NCBI RefSeq assembly: GCF_988242995.1
Contig: NZ_OZ547043.1
Reading direction: 5' to 3' (one strand)
DNA length: 64,000 nucleotides
Positions 20,640-53,555 of this stretch are shown here, one piece after another (positions within the stretch are counted from its first letter, which is position 1; every line of letters starts with the position of its first letter). Position numbers and translations under genes: made by a program. The notes beneath the pieces are model-generated. The model was not told where the DNA came from. It ran no database searches and saw only the letters and a program-made list of their open reading frames with translations.

Positions 20640-20905
20640 GGTCATTCTCCTTTACGGTGATAACCGTCGCGTAAGCAAAAAATTGCCCCATTTTTTTGGA
20701 TTCCTCAGCGACAACAACTGTCGATTTTTAGTAAATATCTATCCGGTACGAAGCCCGGCCTCTTGGTATGAATGATTGGTTTGAAGCAAAAAATAACCGA
20801 CGCTGATGAAACGTCGGTTTTTAGTCATTTTTTGACAGCGGCGCATTGTGCCTAAATGGGGGGGAAATGACAAGAGAATGAGAGGCTTGTCATAATAATT
20901 TTTCT

Positions 20906-23573: not shown

Positions 23574-23624
23574 ATGACACGCGTTCAATTTAAACACCAC
23601 CATCATCACCATCATCCTGACTAG
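23574..23624 (+). CDS. hisL: his operon leader peptide
   Basis: MTRVQFKHHHHHHHPD with seven consecutive His codons. Confidence 0.95.
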   Translation: MTRVQFKHHHHHHHPD

Positions 23625-23688
23625 TCTTTCAGGCGATGTGTGCTGGAAGACATTCAGATCTTCCAGTGGTGCATGAACGCATGAGAGA

Positions 23689-23724
23689 GCCCCCGGAAGA
23701 TCACCTTCCGGGGGCTTTTTTATT
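23689..23724 (+). terminator. his attenuator terminator
   Basis: GC-rich hairpin GCCCCCGGAAG/CTTCCGGGGGC followed by TTTTTTATT. Confidence 0.9.
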
Positions 23725-35100: not shown

Positions 35101-35967
35101 TCACTTTCCAATTAATTGAAATAAATATTGACCATACTGTGTTTTCTCCATAATCCTGGCCTCAGTCAGGACCTGCTCCGCAGTCAGCCATTTATTGCGC
35201 AAAGCTATTTCTTCTAAGCAAGCAACTTTATATCCTTGACGCTTTTCGATAGTATGAACAAATTGAGAAGCTTCAATAAGGCTATCATGTGTTCCCGTAT
35301 CCAACCAAGCGAACCCCCTTCCCAAGAGTTCTACATTAAGCATATCCCGCTCAAGATACATTTTATTTATTGAAGTGATTTCAAGCTCACCACGAGGAGA
35401 TGGTTTAACTTGCTTTGCAAAATCCACCACCTGATTATCATAGAAATAGAGTCCAGTTATGGCCCAATTAGATTTTGGTGTTTGTGGCTTCTCTTCGACA
35501 GAGAGCACCTTAAATGATTCGTCAAATTCTACAATGCCAAATCGTTCAGGATCCATAACCTGATAGCCAAAAACTGTAGCTCCTCTTTTTCTGGAAGCCA
35601 CCTGTTCCAGTTTGCGACCGAAACTTTGACCGAAGAAAATATTATCCCCTAAAACCAGGGCACATTCATCACCAGCGATGAACTCTTCACCAATAATAAA
35701 AGCCTGCGCCAACCCATCAGGACTTGGTTGAATAGCATATTGAAGGTTAATTCCAAACCGGGATCCGTCTCCTAGCAGGCGTTTATACGATGATAAGTCC
35801 TCGGGAGTAGAAATAAGAAGTATATCTTTTATCCCTGCCAGCATTAATACTGAAATAGGGTAATATACCATTGGCTTATCATAAATAGGTAGGAGCTGTT
35901 TTGATACCCCTCGAGTAATCGGATAAAGTCGGGTACCAGAACCTCCCGCTAATATAATTCCTTTCAT
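35101..35967 (-). CDS. rmlA: glucose-1-phosphate thymidylyltransferase
   Basis: 288 aa, [16 protein letters not shown] motif; high identity to recalled RfbA. Confidence 0.9.
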
Positions 35968-36111
35968 TGCTTACCTTCTCTATATAATCTTCAAATATTA
36001 TCGCATTAACTTTTAAGTAAATTTTAAAAATGCAGTGCAATAAACATTCAGTTTAAATAAGCTTGACATTAGAAATATCTCCAGCTTATTTACTTGTATT
36101 AAATGTCACAT

Positions 36112-36642
36112 TTAATCTAATTTTTTTAGGTATGTCGCTGGAGTGCCGCCTACTAATTCCTTTTCACCGACATCTTTTAGAACTACAGAATTTGCTGCAA
36201 CTATAGCTCCATTGTTAATAACAATAGGTCCCAAAATAACAGATCCAGTGGCCAATATAACATCGTTGCCAATAACAGGACGAAGTTCCTTGTTATATTT
36301 CATATCAAGTGTTTTTGCACCAATAGTGACATTTTGATATATAGTGCAGTTTTCACCTATACGCGCCGCACCGATAACTATGCCAAAGGTATGTGGTATG
36401 AAAAGTCCACCTTTAATCTCACATTCAGTTGCGATCTCAATGTTAAAAATGAGGACGTTTAAAAGTGAACAACATTTTGATATTCTTCTGAATCCTTTTT
36501 CTTTTAAAGAATAGGATGTCCTATATATTACATTGGGAATCAAACGAGGGCTAAAAATTCTAAAATAGTCTTTAAATTTAAAAGCAGATTCATTCCCAAT
36601 CAATTCTTTATATCTTTGAATATCTTGTTGTATATTTTTCAT
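36112..36642 (-). CDS. hexapeptide-repeat O-acetyltransferase
   Basis: 176 aa with left-handed beta-helix hexapeptide repeats; AT-rich. Confidence 0.65.
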   Translation of the reverse strand: MKNIQQDIQRYKELIGNESAFKFKDYFRIFSPRLIPNVIYRTSYSLKEKGFRRISKCCSLLNVLIFNIEIATECEIKGGLFIPHTFGIVIGAARIGENCTIYQNVTIGAKTLDMKYNKELRPVIGNDVILATGSVILGPIVINNGAIVAANSVVLKDVGEKELVGGTPATYLKKLD

Positions 36643-37699
36643 TTTTTATTCCTGCGTATCCTGCTAAAAACACCAGATATAGCCAAAACATAGGGAAAAG
36701 GAAGGTTAGTTTAAGGCAGGGGAGCAGGCATAATAACATCAATCTAAGTGAGAATCGTGAATATTTTAGGAACAATACCAGCCATGATACACTAAGGATA
36801 CTGCCTAACCAAAAGCCAAAAACGATGAAATTACTTCCGAATAACGTCATATCAAAAAGAGACTGAAAATAGTCTGGTGCATTGTCATAATACCCAACCA
36901 TACCGTGGCCAATATTAAAAACAAGAGGGCTATCAAAGAATGATTTCATCAACTCAAGTTTATATGATGTGCTACCATCACTACCAGATGAAATATAAGA
37001 CATACGCCACATAATGTTTTGATATATTATCGGAGAAACCAGTACTAACGATATTAACCCGGTTGCGATCCACTTTAGTGTCAATCTACAGGTAAGAATA
37101 AAAAATAACATAACGCAGATAACAGAGAAAGTCGAACCGGATAACACCATACACATTAATGCTATATAACTTAGTAATGAGTTATTATTAGCTACAATAT
37201 ACCTCATCACTAATAATGTGACCATATGTATAGAGAAAATACTCGGTTCGGCAAATACTCCTGTTGCTCTGTAATCGAAACCGTCATAACTGCTACGGTG
37301 TGGAGGACCTAACAAGAACTTCCCATAATCGATATCCACATTAATGATTTTGAAAGCTAAATACTGCAACAGGAAAGTAAAAATGTGAAACTTGATGCAA
37401 AAATCGATCACCTTAAGCCAGTCACAGCTTTTAATTCTTTTTACACAATAGCTATAGATTGATGGTACTGTCAATGCATAAAAGCAGCATACCAAAGTAA
37501 AAATAAATATTTTATCCACTACGCCAAAGAATACATGAAAAATAAGCGATGTGAACGATACCAGAATAAATATCAACCCTTGCGATGAAACCTTACATTT
37601 ACCCTGTATAAACACCAGAAAAAAAACGCAAAACTGAATAATAAAAAAAACCGGACTAAAAATGAAAAGAGTACCAAAAAGAAAATATATATTAGCCAT
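36608..37699 (-). CDS. wzy: O-antigen polymerase Wzy (putative)
   Basis: 363-aa polytopic membrane protein inside the O-antigen cluster; very AT-rich. Confidence 0.6.
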   Translation of the reverse strand: MANIYFLFGTLFIFSPVFFIIQFCVFFLVFIQGKCKVSSQGLIFILVSFTSLIFHVFFGVVDKIFIFTLVCCFYALTVPSIYSYCVKRIKSCDWLKVIDFCIKFHIFTFLLQYLAFKIINVDIDYGKFLLGPPHRSSYDGFDYRATGVFAEPSIFSIHMVTLLVMRYIVANNNSLLSYIALMCMVLSGSTFSVICVMLFFILTCRLTLKWIATGLISLVLVSPIIYQNIMWRMSYISSGSDGSTSYKLELMKSFFDSPLVFNIGHGMVGYYDNAPDYFQSLFDMTLFGSNFIVFGFWLGSILSVSWLVLFLKYSRFSLRLMLLCLLPCLKLTFLFPMFWLYLVFLAGYAGIKNEKYTTRYSKI

Positions 37700-38669
37700 T
37701 TCTTTCCCTTTTTGAATAACCCTCTATATAATACATAGCCAAGACTAACTTGTAAAATATTGCTCTGATTTTAAATTTATTCCTATTGTCTAACTTATTA
37801 AGAACAACCCTTACAAATTTATTAAGTTTAATACTATTAGCGCAAGACAAAGCTACTCTAAGCACAGTTGACTTCATACTACCTTTCCGCTCAGCCTGGG
37901 GAAATAGCAATTTATCTACAATTTCAGGATGTTTCTTAACCAAAAGCGGTACTGAGTACCTTGCATAAGGAATCATTCTTTCACATGCCCTATCGAGGGT
38001 AGGGGTGTCGTTATCGTAGAGTAAAGCATCGCTACAAAAGAAAAACGGAACAGAGCTTAAACGAAGCCGCGCCCCAAATTCTTCATCCTCACAACCATAA
38101 TGCCGGAATGATTCATCGAACCCTTTCTGTGCTTCAAACTCGGATTTGCTAATCAGGAAAGCATCGCTTGCAAAGTAGCGATACTCAATTTTAACAGTTC
38201 CTTTATATCTATTCCCCAAATATCGGGAGTCAAAGTAGTGTAGGTAATTGCTGTCGCGGGTTAAATCTTGCCGACATCTGACATTAGCCCTTGCTACAAA
38301 AGGCTTCTCGCAGGACAAAATCATTGAATGCAGGCTATCAAGACAACCTTGCTGGAGCAAATTGTCTATGTCGACAAAAAATAACCATTCATTGCTTGCT
38401 GATTTCGCAGCTCTATTTCGAGAAAAGGCGCGACCTTCATTTATTTCATTACGTAAGAACACTAACCGCCATTCGCGCTCATTAAATTTTTCAGAAAAGG
38501 CAATAGTTGTGTCTTCCAAATTCACCTCAGAACCGTCATCGATGATGATAAGTTCAATATTCTTTAGTATATTCTTTTGTCCATGAGTATTAGCGAGCAG
38601 AGCTGAGATGAAAGTTTCTACTTTTGATGAGCTACCGAGAACAGGGCTAATAATGCTAATCATTTGCAC
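37692..38669 (-). CDS. family 2 glycosyltransferase
   Basis: IIDDGS and VDIDN DxD-type motifs. Confidence 0.7.
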   Translation of the reverse strand: MQMISIISPVLGSSSKVETFISALLANTHGQKNILKNIELIIIDDGSEVNLEDTTIAFSEKFNEREWRLVFLRNEINEGRAFSRNRAAKSASNEWLFFVDIDNLLQQGCLDSLHSMILSCEKPFVARANVRCRQDLTRDSNYLHYFDSRYLGNRYKGTVKIEYRYFASDAFLISKSEFEAQKGFDESFRHYGCEDEEFGARLRLSSVPFFFCSDALLYDNDTPTLDRACERMIPYARYSVPLLVKKHPEIVDKLLFPQAERKGSMKSTVLRVALSCANSIKLNKFVRVVLNKLDNRNKFKIRAIFYKLVLAMYYIEGYSKRERNG

Positions 38670-39918
38670 GTTCCATTAAATATTTTTTAGTTACAGTTAA
38701 ATACCAATAGATTGAAACTAATATTGAAAAGAAAAGAGAAATATATAATGCAATAAAGATGCTTGGTATCGGCGCAGTAATAGCAGAGACTTTCAATGCG
38801 CTATAGATGCTCAGACATAATAAAAATACAAGACACCATTTAATGGTGTAATAGTAGTAACTCTTTGATGCAAGGTTAGCTGCGTTGATCAAATTATCGA
38901 CAGCAAAAAATGGCAACAAAAAGACCAGAATATTATAATAATTTGCCGATGTGACATAGTCATGGCCGAAAACAAATGTAAAGATATATGGTGTAAATGG
39001 CTTTAACGAAAATGAGAATAACGAAAAAGCAGTAAACATTATTATGGATAAGACAATAAGATTTCTGTTGAAAATTTTCCACTTCTTGTTTTTGTATAAA
39101 AGGATGGGGGCCAAAACCTGTATCAATATTAAGGTTACTGAAGCTGTATTCTCATTAATCTGTGATGCAGCACTATATATACCATAATCAACTGGTGAAA
39201 TGTTACCTTTCAGTAAGAATCTGTCAATTTTCATAAATAATGCATAGGCTACAACCCCTCCCCAGATGAAAAAACTGCGTTTTAACAGGAAGCCTATATC
39301 ATTTAGTCTAACAAGACTTATTCTGGGGAACTTACAAATTGAACAACAGTACATGACTATCGCAACAAAAATGCCCTCCAGTACCCATGGCAATGCAAGG
39401 AACTTGATATCGAAATTTATCACTATAAATAAGTAATATAGTGTTAGTATCCTGATAATGCAGCCAAAGATCTGGATGATACCTGAGAGGTATAATTTCC
39501 CTTCAGATTGCCATTTTGCAAAGCCTACCATCAATGGCTCTCGTGCCAAGAGAGTAACGGACGAAAATAGCAAGTAATACCTTACAATCTCACTTTCAGC
39601 TGTAATTGCGAGGATTACACTGACAGTAGCGACTAATGATGATACAGATAATCTTGCAAAAAAAATTGTATTACAATAAATCAATTTCTTGCGTAATGAA
39701 TAGCGCGATAACTGAGGGACAACTGATTCTGACCCGCACATCCAAGTTAGTGACATTAAAATATTTGAAAAAGTAAATGCATATTGCCAAATGCCAAACT
39801 GCTCAATTGGAAGCGCTTTTGAGATAAGATGGTTAGCATAAATAGCACTAATAATCTGTACAAATCGCTCAAACAACAGGACAAGCAATCCCGCAATAAT
39901 TGATTTATTCACGAACAC
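38656..39918 (-). CDS. wzx: O-antigen flippase Wzx (putative)
   Basis: 420-aa protein with about 12 hydrophobic segments. Confidence 0.65.
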   Translation of the reverse strand: MFVNKSIIAGLLVLLFERFVQIISAIYANHLISKALPIEQFGIWQYAFTFSNILMSLTWMCGSESVVPQLSRYSLRKKLIYCNTIFFARLSVSSLVATVSVILAITAESEIVRYYLLFSSVTLLAREPLMVGFAKWQSEGKLYLSGIIQIFGCIIRILTLYYLFIVINFDIKFLALPWVLEGIFVAIVMYCCSICKFPRISLVRLNDIGFLLKRSFFIWGGVVAYALFMKIDRFLLKGNISPVDYGIYSAASQINENTASVTLILIQVLAPILLYKNKKWKIFNRNLIVLSIIMFTAFSLFSFSLKPFTPYIFTFVFGHDYVTSANYYNILVFLLPFFAVDNLINAANLASKSYYYYTIKWCLVFLLCLSIYSALKVSAITAPIPSIFIALYISLFFSILVSIYWYLTVTKKYLMERAND

Positions 39919-40903
39919 CTTCCGGTGAGATTATTTTTTTCACCCATTGCTGTAAAGAATATTGTTCTCTATTTTTGTAATTAACATTCGGTGCGTTAAT
40001 AAAATTCTCAGGTACTATGACCTGATGTCTTTTTACTACGCAGATCATATTAGGGTCATAAAAATCGTACTTTTTTATGTCTTCATTCGTGGTAATAATT
40101 TTTTTATTTAACCCGATGCATTCTATTGTTCGCATTGTCAGACCGCGCTGCCTTGGATGATGAATATCGATGATAATTTCAGAGCACTTCATCATTTCAA
40201 CAACTTCAGATTGTGATAATGGTTCAAATTCTACGTCTGTATTTATTTTTTTTCCGCTTAATAAATTCTTCAGTTTAAAAATAATTTCATTCTGAAAATA
40301 AAAGAATGTATAAGCATTAATGTCTTTAATATTTCTTACTTCAGCAGTAATGCAATTGACCAAATCAACGCGATCTGAATGAGCTGTACCGATAAAACAA
40401 AGATCGTATTTTAGCGAATGCTCATGCTTATTGTCAAAACGCGGCGAATAAAACAGCGGAAGAAATGTTACTCCCCATTTTTCAGCATCATCACGTTCAA
40501 AGGTGAAAACCGAATCAAACTGATTTATTATTCTTTTAACTTTGGGTTTGTTATTGACCGAATCCCACAAATACATAATGAATTTACAGTGTTCATTTTT
40601 TACTTTAACGGTTTTTTTTATGGCCTGTAAAATTTCATGATCAATTGCTTCAGGATTTAAAATAAATACATTATCGATTTTTTTGTTGACAATTTGCCGT
40701 AGTAATTTTTTATAATAACTTGAGTTATACTTTTTAATCAAAATACTACAACCTAACCTTAGCAATGATTTATAAATAGCATTATTGCTCGGCCGCTCAT
40801 CCCAATAGATAACGTCATTAGTTAATTCTAATTCTTTGACTATTTCTTTTTCATAATTAAAAAACTTGGGAGAAATAAACAATACTGTATTTTTGTACCC
40901 CAT
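39905..40903 (-). CDS. putative glycosyltransferase, family unassigned
   Basis: 332-aa soluble protein in the O-antigen operon; no motif recognised by eye. Confidence 0.35.
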   Translation of the reverse strand: MGYKNTVLFISPKFFNYEKEIVKELELTNDVIYWDERPSNNAIYKSLLRLGCSILIKKYNSSYYKKLLRQIVNKKIDNVFILNPEAIDHEILQAIKKTVKVKNEHCKFIMYLWDSVNNKPKVKRIINQFDSVFTFERDDAEKWGVTFLPLFYSPRFDNKHEHSLKYDLCFIGTAHSDRVDLVNCITAEVRNIKDINAYTFFYFQNEIIFKLKNLLSGKKINTDVEFEPLSQSEVVEMMKCSEIIIDIHHPRQRGLTMRTIECIGLNKKIITTNEDIKKYDFYDPNMICVVKRHQVIVPENFINAPNVNYKNREQYSLQQWVKKIISPEGVRE

Positions 40904-40904
40904 T

Positions 40905-41720
40905 TTATCTTCCCTGAGATTTTTTGAATTCTTTTATCATATCCACTAAATCATTCAATACATTTTTATAATGATGTGGGACTATTGAGTTAGTTTTTTG
41001 CATCGTGATAACAGGAAATGTTTCGCATGTATCATTCTTGTGCCACTGTATATTACAACCTGTTTCAGATATTAAAATGTCAGCGATGGATTTTGCTGAA
41101 ACATTATATCCAGATGCAATGTTATAAATATCTCCGGGTGAAGTTATAGATTCTGCTAGCTTATACATGACGGCAACCACATCATCTACCGATACATAAT
41201 CCTTCTCGTAGTCAGAGCTAACATACATATCGACATGATTGTTATTGATTGCATTTTTTATTATTTGCGGAAGGAATAACGGGCTATTTAGTGCGAGTCC
41301 ATAAACATTTGATGGTCGGACGACCACAACGTTCTTTTTACTTCTTAGACATAACTCTTCAGCAACCAATTTTGTCAAATTGAAAAGCTTGCGACCATCA
41401 TTGTGACAAATTTTTAGATCTGAATTTTCTGCAGAATCTCTGGAGTTCAAATATACACGAGTGGAAGAAATGTAGACTAATTTCTGGAAATTAGCTTGTG
41501 TAAGTATTACTTTTAGCTTATTGACATTTGCATCCACAACATTATAGGCATCACTTTTGCAATCGCCATAGCCTGCGCAATAAAAGACGGTACCAAGGTC
41601 AATTTCTTTGTTATAAAGATAGTCTCTGTCAGGGCAGAAACATTCTTTATTCATTGATTCTAAAAATGTTACCATATGTGAACCAATGAAACCTGAACTA
41701 CCAACGACTGTATACTTCAT
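40905..41720 (-). CDS. NAD(P)-dependent extended-SDR epimerase/reductase-like protein
   Basis: N-terminal GSSGFIGS Rossmann motif; 271 aa; occupies the position of a dTDP-sugar 4-reductase. Confidence 0.55.
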   Translation of the reverse strand: MKYTVVGSSGFIGSHMVTFLESMNKECFCPDRDYLYNKEIDLGTVFYCAGYGDCKSDAYNVVDANVNKLKVILTQANFQKLVYISSTRVYLNSRDSAENSDLKICHNDGRKLFNLTKLVAEELCLRSKKNVVVVRPSNVYGLALNSPLFLPQIIKNAINNNHVDMYVSSDYEKDYVSVDDVVAVMYKLAESITSPGDIYNIASGYNVSAKSIADILISETGCNIQWHKNDTCETFPVITMQKTNSIVPHHYKNVLNDLVDMIKEFKKSQGR

Positions 41721-41782
41721 AATACTATAGCCTTTTGCTCTATGTATTAATAATGACAGGAAGCTAATTTAAACTGTTATGC

Positions 41783-42325
41783 TTATAAGCTAGCTTCTTT
41801 AAATTCTGAAAAACTAATTAACGCGTTGTCTTTAGATGACATAATTGGCATGTCTATCGGCCATTGTATATTCAGTTCTTTGTCATTCCAGATTATCCCC
41901 CCTTCATCGGTAGGATCATAGAAGTCTGTGCATTTGTAATGGAAATCCGCATACTCACTTAATACACAAAAACCATGTGCAAATCCAGGTGGGATATAGA
42001 TTTGATTATTTTTATCCCCAGAAAGTATAACACCTACATGCTTTCCAAAAGACGAAGATCCAGGTCTTAAATCAACAGCCACATCAAAAACTTCTCCACT
42101 GATGACACTTACTAATTTACCTTGAGGATTATTTTTTTGAAAATGTAAACCTCGAAGCACATTTCTTGCTGAGCGTGATCGATTATCTTGTACAAATGCC
42201 TCAGTTATTCCTATGTCGTGATATTTCTTCTGATGCCATGCTTCCAAAAAGAAACCACGAGAGTCACCAAAGACTTTTGGCTCAATGATTACACAACCAG
42301 CAAGTGGAGTCTCAATTACCTTCAT
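41783..42325 (-). CDS. rmlC: dTDP-4-dehydrorhamnose 3,5-epimerase family protein (RmlC-like)
   Basis: 180 aa, EPKVFGDSRGFF...VQDN...RGLHFQ motifs typical of RmlC cupins. Confidence 0.8.
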   Translation of the reverse strand: MKVIETPLAGCVIIEPKVFGDSRGFFLEAWHQKKYHDIGITEAFVQDNRSRSARNVLRGLHFQKNNPQGKLVSVISGEVFDVAVDLRPGSSSFGKHVGVILSGDKNNQIYIPPGFAHGFCVLSEYADFHYKCTDFYDPTDEGGIIWNDKELNIQWPIDMPIMSSKDNALISFSEFKEASL

Positions 42326-42396
42326 AATTATAAACCTTGTATTATATTTTTTAAATTTGCTAATTTTTGATACAATTTAGCTACCTTTATCAGTTA

Positions 42397-43479
42397 CTAA
42401 CGCATCTTGTAGTTCTGCTCAATCCAGGTTTGGTACGCCCCACTTTTGATATTTTCAACCCATGAGGTGTTTGCCAGATACCATTCAACCGTTTTGCGAA
42501 TCCCACTTTCGAACGTCTCTTGCGGTTTCCAACCGAGCTCACGGCTGATTTTATCCGCATCGATCGCGTATCGACGGTCATGGCCTGGACGATCGGCAAC
42601 ATAGGTGATTTGTTCACGGTATGACACTGCTTTAGGTACGATCTCATCCAGCAGGTCGCAGATGGTATGTACAACATCGAGATTTTTCTTCTCGTTATGG
42701 CCACCGATGTTGTAGGTCTCACCAGGGATTCCTTTCGTCACCACGGTATATAACGCACGGGCATGGTCTTCAACATAGAGCCAGTCGCGAATCTGATCGC
42801 CTTTACCATAAATGGGTAACGATTTCCCTTCGAGAGCATTGAGAATAACCAAGGGAATCAACTTTTCAGGGAAATGGTATGGGCCATAGTTATTCGAACA
42901 GTTGGTCACCATTGTTGGAAGACCGTATGTACGCAGCCAGGCACGAACGAGATGGTCGCTGGAGGCTTTTGAAGCCGAATAAGGACTACTCGGCGCATAG
43001 GCGGTTTGTTCCGTGAAGAGAGGAAGAATACTCCCCTGCGCAACCTCATCCGGATGCGGTAAATCCCCATAAACTTCATCAGTAGAGATGTGATGGAAGC
43101 GGAATGTCGCCTTTCGCGCACTATCCAGTGAGGACCAGTATTGACGGGCTGTTTCTAAAAGAACATAAGTACCCACAATATTCGTTTCAATAAATGCAGC
43201 AGGGCCTGTAATTGAACGGTCAACATGGCTTTCAGCAGCCAGGTGCATCACTGCATCCGGCTGATGCTGAGAAAAAATTCGCGCCATTGCAGCAGCATCG
43301 CAAATATCCGCATGTTCAAAAACATAGCGTTCAGAATCAGAAACATCAGCAAGTGATTCCAGGTTTCCGGCGTACGTTAATTTATCGACATTAACAACAC
43401 TATCCTGCGTATTATTTATAATGTGACGAACTACAGCAGAACCAATAAATCCTGCGCCACCAGTAACAAGTATCTTCAC
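42397..43479 (-). CDS. rmlB: dTDP-glucose 4,6-dehydratase
   Basis: 360 aa, [20 protein letters not shown]; YxxxK motif present. Confidence 0.9.
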
Positions 43480-43553
43480 TTATTTATTCCATATAACTTC
43501 AGAGCATGCTGTGAAATAAGCGGCTCTTAGGTTGATTAATAGAGGTGTTAATG

Positions 43554-43592
43554 CACGCTACCGCCCCTGGCTTTACAGCTACCAGAGCACTA
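43554..43592 (-). promoter_or_regulatory. JUMPstart element containing the ops site (GGCGGTAGCGTG)
   Basis: Reverse complement of the plus strand gives CAGTGCTCTGGTAGCTGTAAAGCCAGGGGCGGTAGCGTG; ops at 43554..43565. Confidence 0.85.
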
Positions 43593-43850
43593 CATGCATG
43601 TCTACGATGTGACGAGCGTTACCCACTCGCGCTAAACCCGAAAAATTCAAACGCTAATTGTCTTACCAATCCGCTCTGGAAACAAGGAAAATCCTGGAAA
43701 ACTTTGACTAAAATCCTATTGCTAACTCGTTGTTATTCTGATTGTTTATATAAAACAACGGCAGGAATATTCGCAACAAATTACTTTCGCCACGAATCTT
43801 CACTGTCGTTATAATTTTCTTATCAACCGTTACATCCGGTCAGATTTTCA

Positions 43851-44744
43851 TTATTCGCTTAACAGCTTCTCAATCCCTTTACGGAACTTCGCCCCTTCTT
43901 TGAGGTTGCGTAGTCCATACTTCACAAATGCCTGCATATAACCCATTTTTTTACCGCAGTCGTAACTGTCCCCAGTCATCAGCATGGCATCAACGGACTG
44001 TTTTTTCGCCAGCTCGGCAATAGCATCAGTCAGCTGAATACGTCCCCATGCACCAGGCTGAGTACGTTCCAGTTCCGGCCAAATATCGGCAGAAAGCACA
44101 TAGCGACCAACGGCCATGATGTCTGAGTCCAGCGTCTGCGGCTGATCCGGTTTTTCGATAAATTCGACGATGCGGCTGACTTTACCTTCACGATCCAGTG
44201 GTTCTTTGGTCTGAATGACGGAGTATTCAGAGAGGTCACCCGGCATACGTTTTGCCAGCACCTGGCTGCGGCCCGTTTCATTGAAGCGCGCAATCATGGC
44301 AGCAAGGTTGTAGCGCAGCGGGTCGGCACTGGCGTCGTCGATCACAACGTCCGGCAATACCACAACAAATGGGTTGTCACCAATGGCGGGTCGTGCACAC
44401 AAAATGGAGTGGCCTAAACCTAAAGGTTCGCCCTGACGCACGTTCATAATGGTCACGCCCGGCGGACAGATGGACTGTACTTCCGCCAGCAGCTGACGCT
44501 TCACGCGCAGTTCAAGGAGAGATTCTAATTCATAAGAGGTGTCGAAGTGGTTTTCGACCGCGTTTTTGGACGCGTGAGTTACCAGGAGGATTTCTTTGAT
44601 CCCTGCAGCCACAATCTCGTCAACAATGTACTGAATCATTGGCTTGTCGACGATCGGTAGCATCTCTTTGGGAATCGCCTTAGTAGCAGGCAACATATGC
44701 ATCCCTAGACCCGCTACAGGAATAACTGCTTTTAAATTCGTCAT
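43851..44744 (-). CDS. galF: UTP-glucose-1-phosphate uridylyltransferase-like GalF
   Basis: 297 aa from [22 protein letters not shown]. Confidence 0.9.
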
Positions 44745-48882: not shown

Positions 48883-49070
48883 GCCTGATGCGACGCTGAC
48901 GCGTCTTATCAGGCCTACAAGACCCGAGCACAGAACCGTAGGCCGGATAAGGCGTTCACGCCGCATCCGGCATTCAGTGCCTGATGCGACGCTGACGCGT
49001 CTTATCAGGCCTACAGGTCCCGAGCACAGAACCGTAGGATGGATAAGGCGTTTTACGCCGCATCCGGCAA
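48883..49070. repeat. tandem REP/BIME units (about 96-bp period)
   Basis: GCCTGATGCGACGCTGACGCGTCTTATCAGGCCTAC...GCCGCATCCGGCA repeated twice nearly identically. Confidence 0.85.
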
Positions 49071-53477: not shown

Positions 53478-53555
53478 ATCGTTACCCTTTTTCAGGCAAT
53501 AGTTGGTCCTGACCGAAGCGGCCAATTTTATTTTTGTCGTTATTTACACCGCGGT

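Follow-up and report, generated by a model that had tools for sequence, protein, structure and literature searches.

Where the O-antigen operon of this DNA begins, the question arises whether the short segment preceding it is a genuine JUMPstart/ops element and, if it is, whether RfaH would be loaded there onto RNA polymerase for the transcription of the whole operon. An earlier note on the same 64-kb stretch of DNA (the window) had proposed a JUMPstart element with a perfect ops motif at 43554-43592, on the sense strand upstream of the operon, and had taken it as a sign of RfaH-dependent antitermination. We find that 43554-43592 is the well-known JUMPstart/ops element, real but ordinary, in its usual place before an E. 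coli O-antigen cluster. It is an element already known, and it is exactly as expected at such a locus.

Read on the minus strand from 43592 to 43554, the 39-bp element is TAGTGCTCTGGTAGCTGTAAAGCCAGGGGCGGTAGCGTG, and its final 12 bases, from 43565 to 43554, are ops, GGCGGTAGCGTG, which agrees with GGCGGTAGnnTG at 12 of 12 positions and places the expected RNA polymerase pause, U11, at 43555. When both strands of the 64-kb window were scanned, this 12-mer was the sole exact match to GGCGGTAGNNTG, and the remaining ops-like sites in the window were matches with one mismatch. The bare 8-mer GGCGGTAG is found three times in the window against 1.18 expected, and by itself is not significant. The Rfam JUMPstart model (RF01707, gathering score 35 bits) matched 43554-43592 on the minus strand over model positions 1-38 of 38, with 56.8 bits and an E-value of 2.2e-10 for the whole window, and since this match runs end to end the coordinates first proposed for the element are exact. 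The 39-bp JUMPstart consensus of Hobbs & Reeves 1994 reportedly has the form CAGTGCTCTGGTAGCTGTTAAGCCAGGGGCGGTAGCGTG; allowing up to three mismatches, we found one site in the window, with two mismatches, and no match in 100 shuffles, so that the alignment to the consensus, which had been named beforehand as the check, came out in favour of the proposal. A chance resemblance without function was rejected on the strength of the empty shuffles (0 of 100), the Rfam E-value of 2e-10 and the retention of the element's position in thousands of genomes. Judged by sequence, the model score, the complete ops, the sense-strand orientation and the position in the 5' non-coding region of the cluster all place the segment in the JUMPstart/ops family.

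The genomic setting is equally regular. The element sits in the 371-bp gap between galF (43851-44744, minus strand; TIGR01105 at 685 bits, and the annotation of strain S88), the conserved upstream flank, and rmlB/rfbB (43479-42397, minus strand), the first gene of the operon, which has a GTG start. The leader from ops to this start (43480-43553, minus strand, from the sequence read) is 74 nt long. The element, galF, rmlB and the entire O-antigen operon all lie on the minus strand, which the earlier note did not name, and its placement of the element on the operon's sense strand is accordingly correct. The position upstream of the operon was also rightly called. An 89-codon open reading frame on the plus strand (43545-43814) overlaps JUMPstart and most of the gap; we regard it as spurious, given that it is unannotated in S88 and that the intergenic DNA is not conserved.

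From its open reading frames, NCBIfam matches and the S88 RefSeq annotation, the operon (35101-43479, minus strand) comprises nine genes of the S88-variant O45 type, all on the same strand as the element, in the order rmlB, rmlC, a gene of the NAD-dependent epimerase/dehydratase family, a WaaS/CpsH-family glycosyltransferase gene, wzx, a GT2 glycosyltransferase gene, wzy, an acetyltransferase gene and rmlA. It is one-directional and 8.4 kb long, with 8,454 nt from ops to the rmlA stop; rmlA ends at 35101, and beyond it lie gnd, ugd and wzzB, followed by the his operon on the opposite strand. The GC content of the cluster is 30-40%, against about 50% in the flanks. From the element as far as rmlA, 8.6 kb in all, the DNA matches E. 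coli S88 (O45:K1:H7) and 35 other complete genomes at 100% identity, and the flippase is named 'S88 variant O45 family' in RefSeq. The identity to S88, the gene order and the GC content together show that this is the standard O-antigen locus of E. coli, between galF and gnd.

Two features of the gene set were seen along the way. The O45-S88 cluster has rmlB, rmlC and rmlA and lacks rmlD, and after rmlC it carries the NAD-dependent epimerase/dehydratase-family gene (40905-41720, minus strand), whose 271-aa product could be an alternative 4-reductase giving a different 6-deoxyhexose. The position of rmlA, last in the operon and set off by a 144-bp gap, is unusual.

How widely the element is kept can be read from complete genomes. 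The 39-mer is present in 5425 of 5426 complete E. coli genomes, at a median of three places per genome and nearly always on the chromosome, and more than 2000 E. coli records carry it in precisely the form seen in the window. On plasmids it is rare (61 of 72,556 records), often as positions 9-39 only, and the plasmid matches include Klebsiella, Citrobacter, Salmonella, Enterobacter, Providencia and Pantoea.

For a closer comparison we took nine other loci spread over the range of identity, namely K-12 O16, O174, a cluster with rfbB first (79% identity), NCTC9022, O124/O164, M11957, a neuB-containing cluster, O157:H7 and a group-1 capsule locus with wzi beside IS1, together with the region upstream of wza in S88, which with the window makes 11 loci. 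The Rfam model matched at the equivalent position in all ten compared loci, with 39.9-61.1 bits. In the alignment of the 11 loci the flanks have diverged, and the sole invariant block is CTGGT.GC...A.GCCAGGGGCGGTAGC.T, which corresponds to the 3' two-thirds of the element. Serogroups cease to resemble one another after ops position 11 or 12, except where the other cluster, too, begins with rfbB; the 74-nt leader that follows ops is common only to clusters with rfbB first. Many BLAST alignments likewise end at query positions 294-297, which are 43557-43554 of the window. The collapse of the alignment and the BLAST ends together mark the 3' end of ops as the border between the conserved flank and serogroup-specific DNA. 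JUMPstart has long been used as the 5' anchor in amplifying O-antigen clusters, and the boundary at the end of ops fits this use.

Variants at the end of ops itself were seen in three of the compared loci: GGCGGTAGCGTA in O174 (L003, 1786-1797), GGCGGTAGCATT in NCTC9022 (L005, 1786-1797) and GGCGGTAGCGTC at the group-1 capsule wzi locus (L010, 1527-1538). According to Zuber et al. 2018 (PMC5995543), a pause-inducing TG at ops positions 11-12 is common to every validated RfaH target of E. coli, and the substitution G12C abolishes the U11 pause. The O174, NCTC9022 and wzi-type loci may load RfaH differently.

For RfaH to act as proposed, ops has to be transcribed, and we looked for a promoter in the gap. 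A generic promoter scan gave nothing convincing on the minus strand of the gap and did not report the promoter proposed below; it returned only a weak site within the 3' end of galF and one plus-strand site, both at the level of shuffles. The generic scan gave no terminator between galF and the element. Comparison of the loci was more informative. Each of the nine galF-linked loci has TTGTTT-N17-GA(C/T)AAT at the corresponding place, 66-92 nt before ops, with a spacer that varies in sequence and is fixed in length, and the arrangement occurs only once in the window. There the candidate sigma-70 promoter (43657-43685, minus strand) consists of TTGTTT at 43685-43680, a 17-nt spacer and GACAAT at 43662-43657, with 91 nt from GACAAT to ops. 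Conservation makes this candidate the likely promoter of the O-antigen operon. If it is, transcription would start near 43650, the leader would be about 171 nt long, and ops would begin about 85 nt into the transcript. For the O7 cluster Marolda & Valvano 1998 reportedly gave a leader of 173 nt, with which the predicted length agrees. In position, then, ops lies upstream of the rmlB start codon and downstream of the conserved candidate promoter.

At the other end of the leader, rmlB has no canonical Shine-Dalgarno sequence, and only GGA is found, 8 nt before the GTG start. The locus thus has the profile of the targets of the ops regulon, which are long, AT-rich operons of horizontal origin whose first gene is without a strong Shine-Dalgarno sequence, a feature described in PMC5995543. 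The rfaH gene itself lies outside the window; in S88, in which the locus is identical, it is at 4257328-4257816 and encodes an intact protein of 162 aa.

The 12-mer of the window is identical to the ops of Zuber et al. 2018 (PMC5995543), from which the numbering of ops bases and the U11 pause are taken. In that work the non-template strand of ops folds into a small hairpin, the recognition target, by which T6 and G5 are offered to the N-terminal domain of RfaH, and all ops substitutions but G2C reduce activation by RfaH, the worst being G5A, T6A, G8C and T11G (PMC5995543). Loaded RfaH is retained by the polymerase, keeping NusG off, and through its C-terminal domain, once refolded, it brings ribosomes to leaders without a Shine-Dalgarno sequence (PMC5995543). 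In the uropathogenic strain CFT073, RfaH was found on eight operons, all reached via an ops in the 5' leader and all covered by H-NS/StpA, with O-antigen synthesis among them (PMC9765446).

Put together with the features of the locus, these results suggest the following course of events. Transcription would start in the galF-rmlB gap at the candidate TTGTTT-N17-GACAAT, near 43650 as judged from conservation. Some 95 nt further on, the polymerase would pause at U11 (43555), and the non-template GGCGGTAGCGTG would form its hairpin and flip out T6; RfaH would then recognise the hairpin, load and exclude NusG, steps established for the identical 12-mer (PMC5995543) and by extension expected at the present locus. 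By analogy with other operons, the polymerase so modified would resist pausing, Rho-dependent termination and H-NS/StpA roadblocks over the 8.4-kb AT-rich operon, and the refolded C-terminal domain of RfaH would help to bring ribosomes to the rmlB start with its weak Shine-Dalgarno sequence. The outcome, again by analogy, would be expression of the distal genes wzx, wzy and rmlA. At other O-antigen operons the expression of distal genes reportedly requires both RfaH and ops (Wang et al. 1998; Marolda & Valvano 1998; PMC9765446). Given the ops in the leader, the long AT-rich operon, the lone GGA before the GTG start and the intact rfaH of S88, we consider it very probable that RfaH loads at 43565-43554 and then brings about processive antitermination and counter-silencing over the whole operon. 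What we observe directly is that the element is present, where and on which strand it lies, and that it is conserved; the U11 pause, the loading of RfaH and the effect on the distal genes at the O45-S88 operon we infer from other operons.

It was also reasonable to ask whether ops is really the active part. In Rfam, JUMPstart is entered among the cis-regulatory RNAs and has a stem of 5 bp, and in the window the corresponding stem-loop (43567-43585, minus strand) has the arms CTGGT (43585-43581) and GCCAG (43571-43567) around a 9-nt loop; an ops-like GGTAGC half-repeat lies in the same region, at 43583-43578. One might accordingly propose that the CUGGU/GCCAG stem-loop of the nascent leader is the functional unit, binding a protein or stabilising a pause, and that ops is secondary. 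The stem can form in 11 of 11 loci, with a single departure, U-G for C-G, in the wza copy; it pairs in 55 of 55 cells across these loci, four of its five pairs are invariant, and its region varies no more than ops does. The U11 pause position follows the base of the stem by 12 nt, a hairpin-to-pause spacing that resembles that of hairpin-stabilised pauses. Invariance of this kind, in which no covariation or compensatory change in the stem was seen among the 11 E. coli loci, is nevertheless uninformative on structure, and the hairpin itself is weak (-4.1 kcal/mol, z -1.1). Folding was no better than that of shuffles for this stem, the 39-mer (z -0.26), the nascent RNA to U11 (z +0.59) or the 176-nt leader (z +0.27). 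Moreover, ops alone, without the JUMPstart stem, gives about 40-fold activation by RfaH in reporters (PMC5995543), and we therefore regard it as very unlikely that the stem-loop is the unit that matters most. A different origin for the conservation would be that the element serves chiefly as the fixed 5' junction at which O-antigen clusters are swapped by homologous recombination, and not in regulation. The numerous between-serogroup BLAST alignments that stop at 43557-43554, and the loss of similarity just after ops position 11 or 12 wherever rfbB is not first, are what such a junction would leave behind. Against this, the remaining galF-proximal intergenic DNA is far more variable than the JUMPstart block, JUMPstart also stands upstream of wza and of the group-1 capsule wzi beside IS1, outside the galF context, and the median of three copies per genome is distributed over different operons. 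As the chief cause of the conservation, recombination is thus a highly improbable explanation; a role as a junction could exist alongside the regulatory one without displacing it.

The reading that we prefer, loading of RfaH at ops, is itself a better account of the 3' third of JUMPstart than of the whole element, because the model has no need of the 27 bases preceding ops, and these show the same invariance across the 11 loci compared as ops does. Given this invariance, and given that the stem ends 12 nt before the pause, the upstream two-thirds might have a function of their own, with the hairpin prolonging the ops pause or acting as a second site of GGTAGC recognition, although we think this unlikely. 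With that spacing the hairpin of the nascent RNA would stand in the RNA exit channel just while the polymerase is at ops, and if it acts in this way the time window for loading scarce RfaH at native operons would be wider.

Among the one-mismatch ops-like sites elsewhere in the window, GGCGGTAGGCGG (55346 to 55335, minus strand) lies on the sense strand within wcaI of the colanic-acid operon. We set it aside as probably due to chance, its one difference from ops, T11G, being strongly defective in reporters. Sites resembling ops inside coding regions are reportedly not bound by RfaH. Apart from JUMPstart, Rfam matches in the window include the algC RNA motif (53482-53531, minus strand; 72.8 bits against a gathering score of 33.8) in the intergenic DNA that separates the colanic-acid genes cpsB (manC) and cpsG (manB), and naRNA4 (CssrE) on REP-type repeats between wzxC and wcaK (48941-49011, plus strand; 79.7 bits). 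They further include the His operon leader upstream of the his operon (23600-23723, plus strand; 130 bits) and the enterobacterial sRNA STnc240 (20786-20860, minus strand; 68 bits).

The element at 43554-43592 marks the 5' end and the regulatory entry of the O-antigen operon in a serotype associated with neonatal meningitis, the S88-type O45. For annotators it indicates the beginning of the transcription unit, and it implies that O-antigen expression should depend on RfaH, a known virulence regulator. The current understanding of such loci is unchanged by it; its value is a correct annotation and a landmark of the serogroup-specific region.

The nearest known counterpart is the rfb JUMPstart of K-12 O16, which shares the placement between galF and the first gene and has an identical ops 12-mer; its 39-mer differs from that of the window at one base, the window having T for C at position 1, and this T variant is also present in M11957 and 2015C-4136. 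The candidate promoter TTGTTT-N17-GACAAT stands at the same distance in both, 91 nt from the -10 hexamer to ops, and the leader after ops is shared with O-antigen clusters that have rfbB first. Compared with other E. coli O-antigen clusters in general (O16; O7 wb*, Marolda & Valvano 1998; Wang et al. 1998), only the downstream serogroup genes differ, here those of S88-variant O45.

S88 has a second JUMPstart (L013, 9495-9533, minus strand), which precedes wza by 179 nt where the colanic-acid operon begins, in a region that lies beyond the end of the window. This copy resembles the present element in its Rfam score (57.3 bits), its identical ops and the shared block GGTAGCT...AAGCCAGGGGCGGTAGCGTG; it differs in having U-G in place of C-G as the first stem pair, another loop and unrelated flanks.

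Among more distant relatives, some of the copies at hlyCABD, tra and waaQ (rfaQ), operons that serve as models for RfaH, carry ops without a full JUMPstart. The minimal ops of these operons shares with the present one its 12 nt, its dependence on the non-template strand and its place in the 5' leader (PMC5995543, PMC9765446). Further afield, the EAR/epsC RNA of Bacillus, LoaP and other NusG-paralogue systems follow the same logic, in which a signal in the leader renders the polymerase resistant to termination on long polysaccharide operons, and the parallel between EAR and a JUMPstart/ops-type signal has been noted (PMC2864571). The two are unrelated in sequence and differ in the nature of the signal, EAR being a structured RNA that acts on the polymerase, whereas ops is single-stranded non-template DNA that is read by a NusG paralogue.
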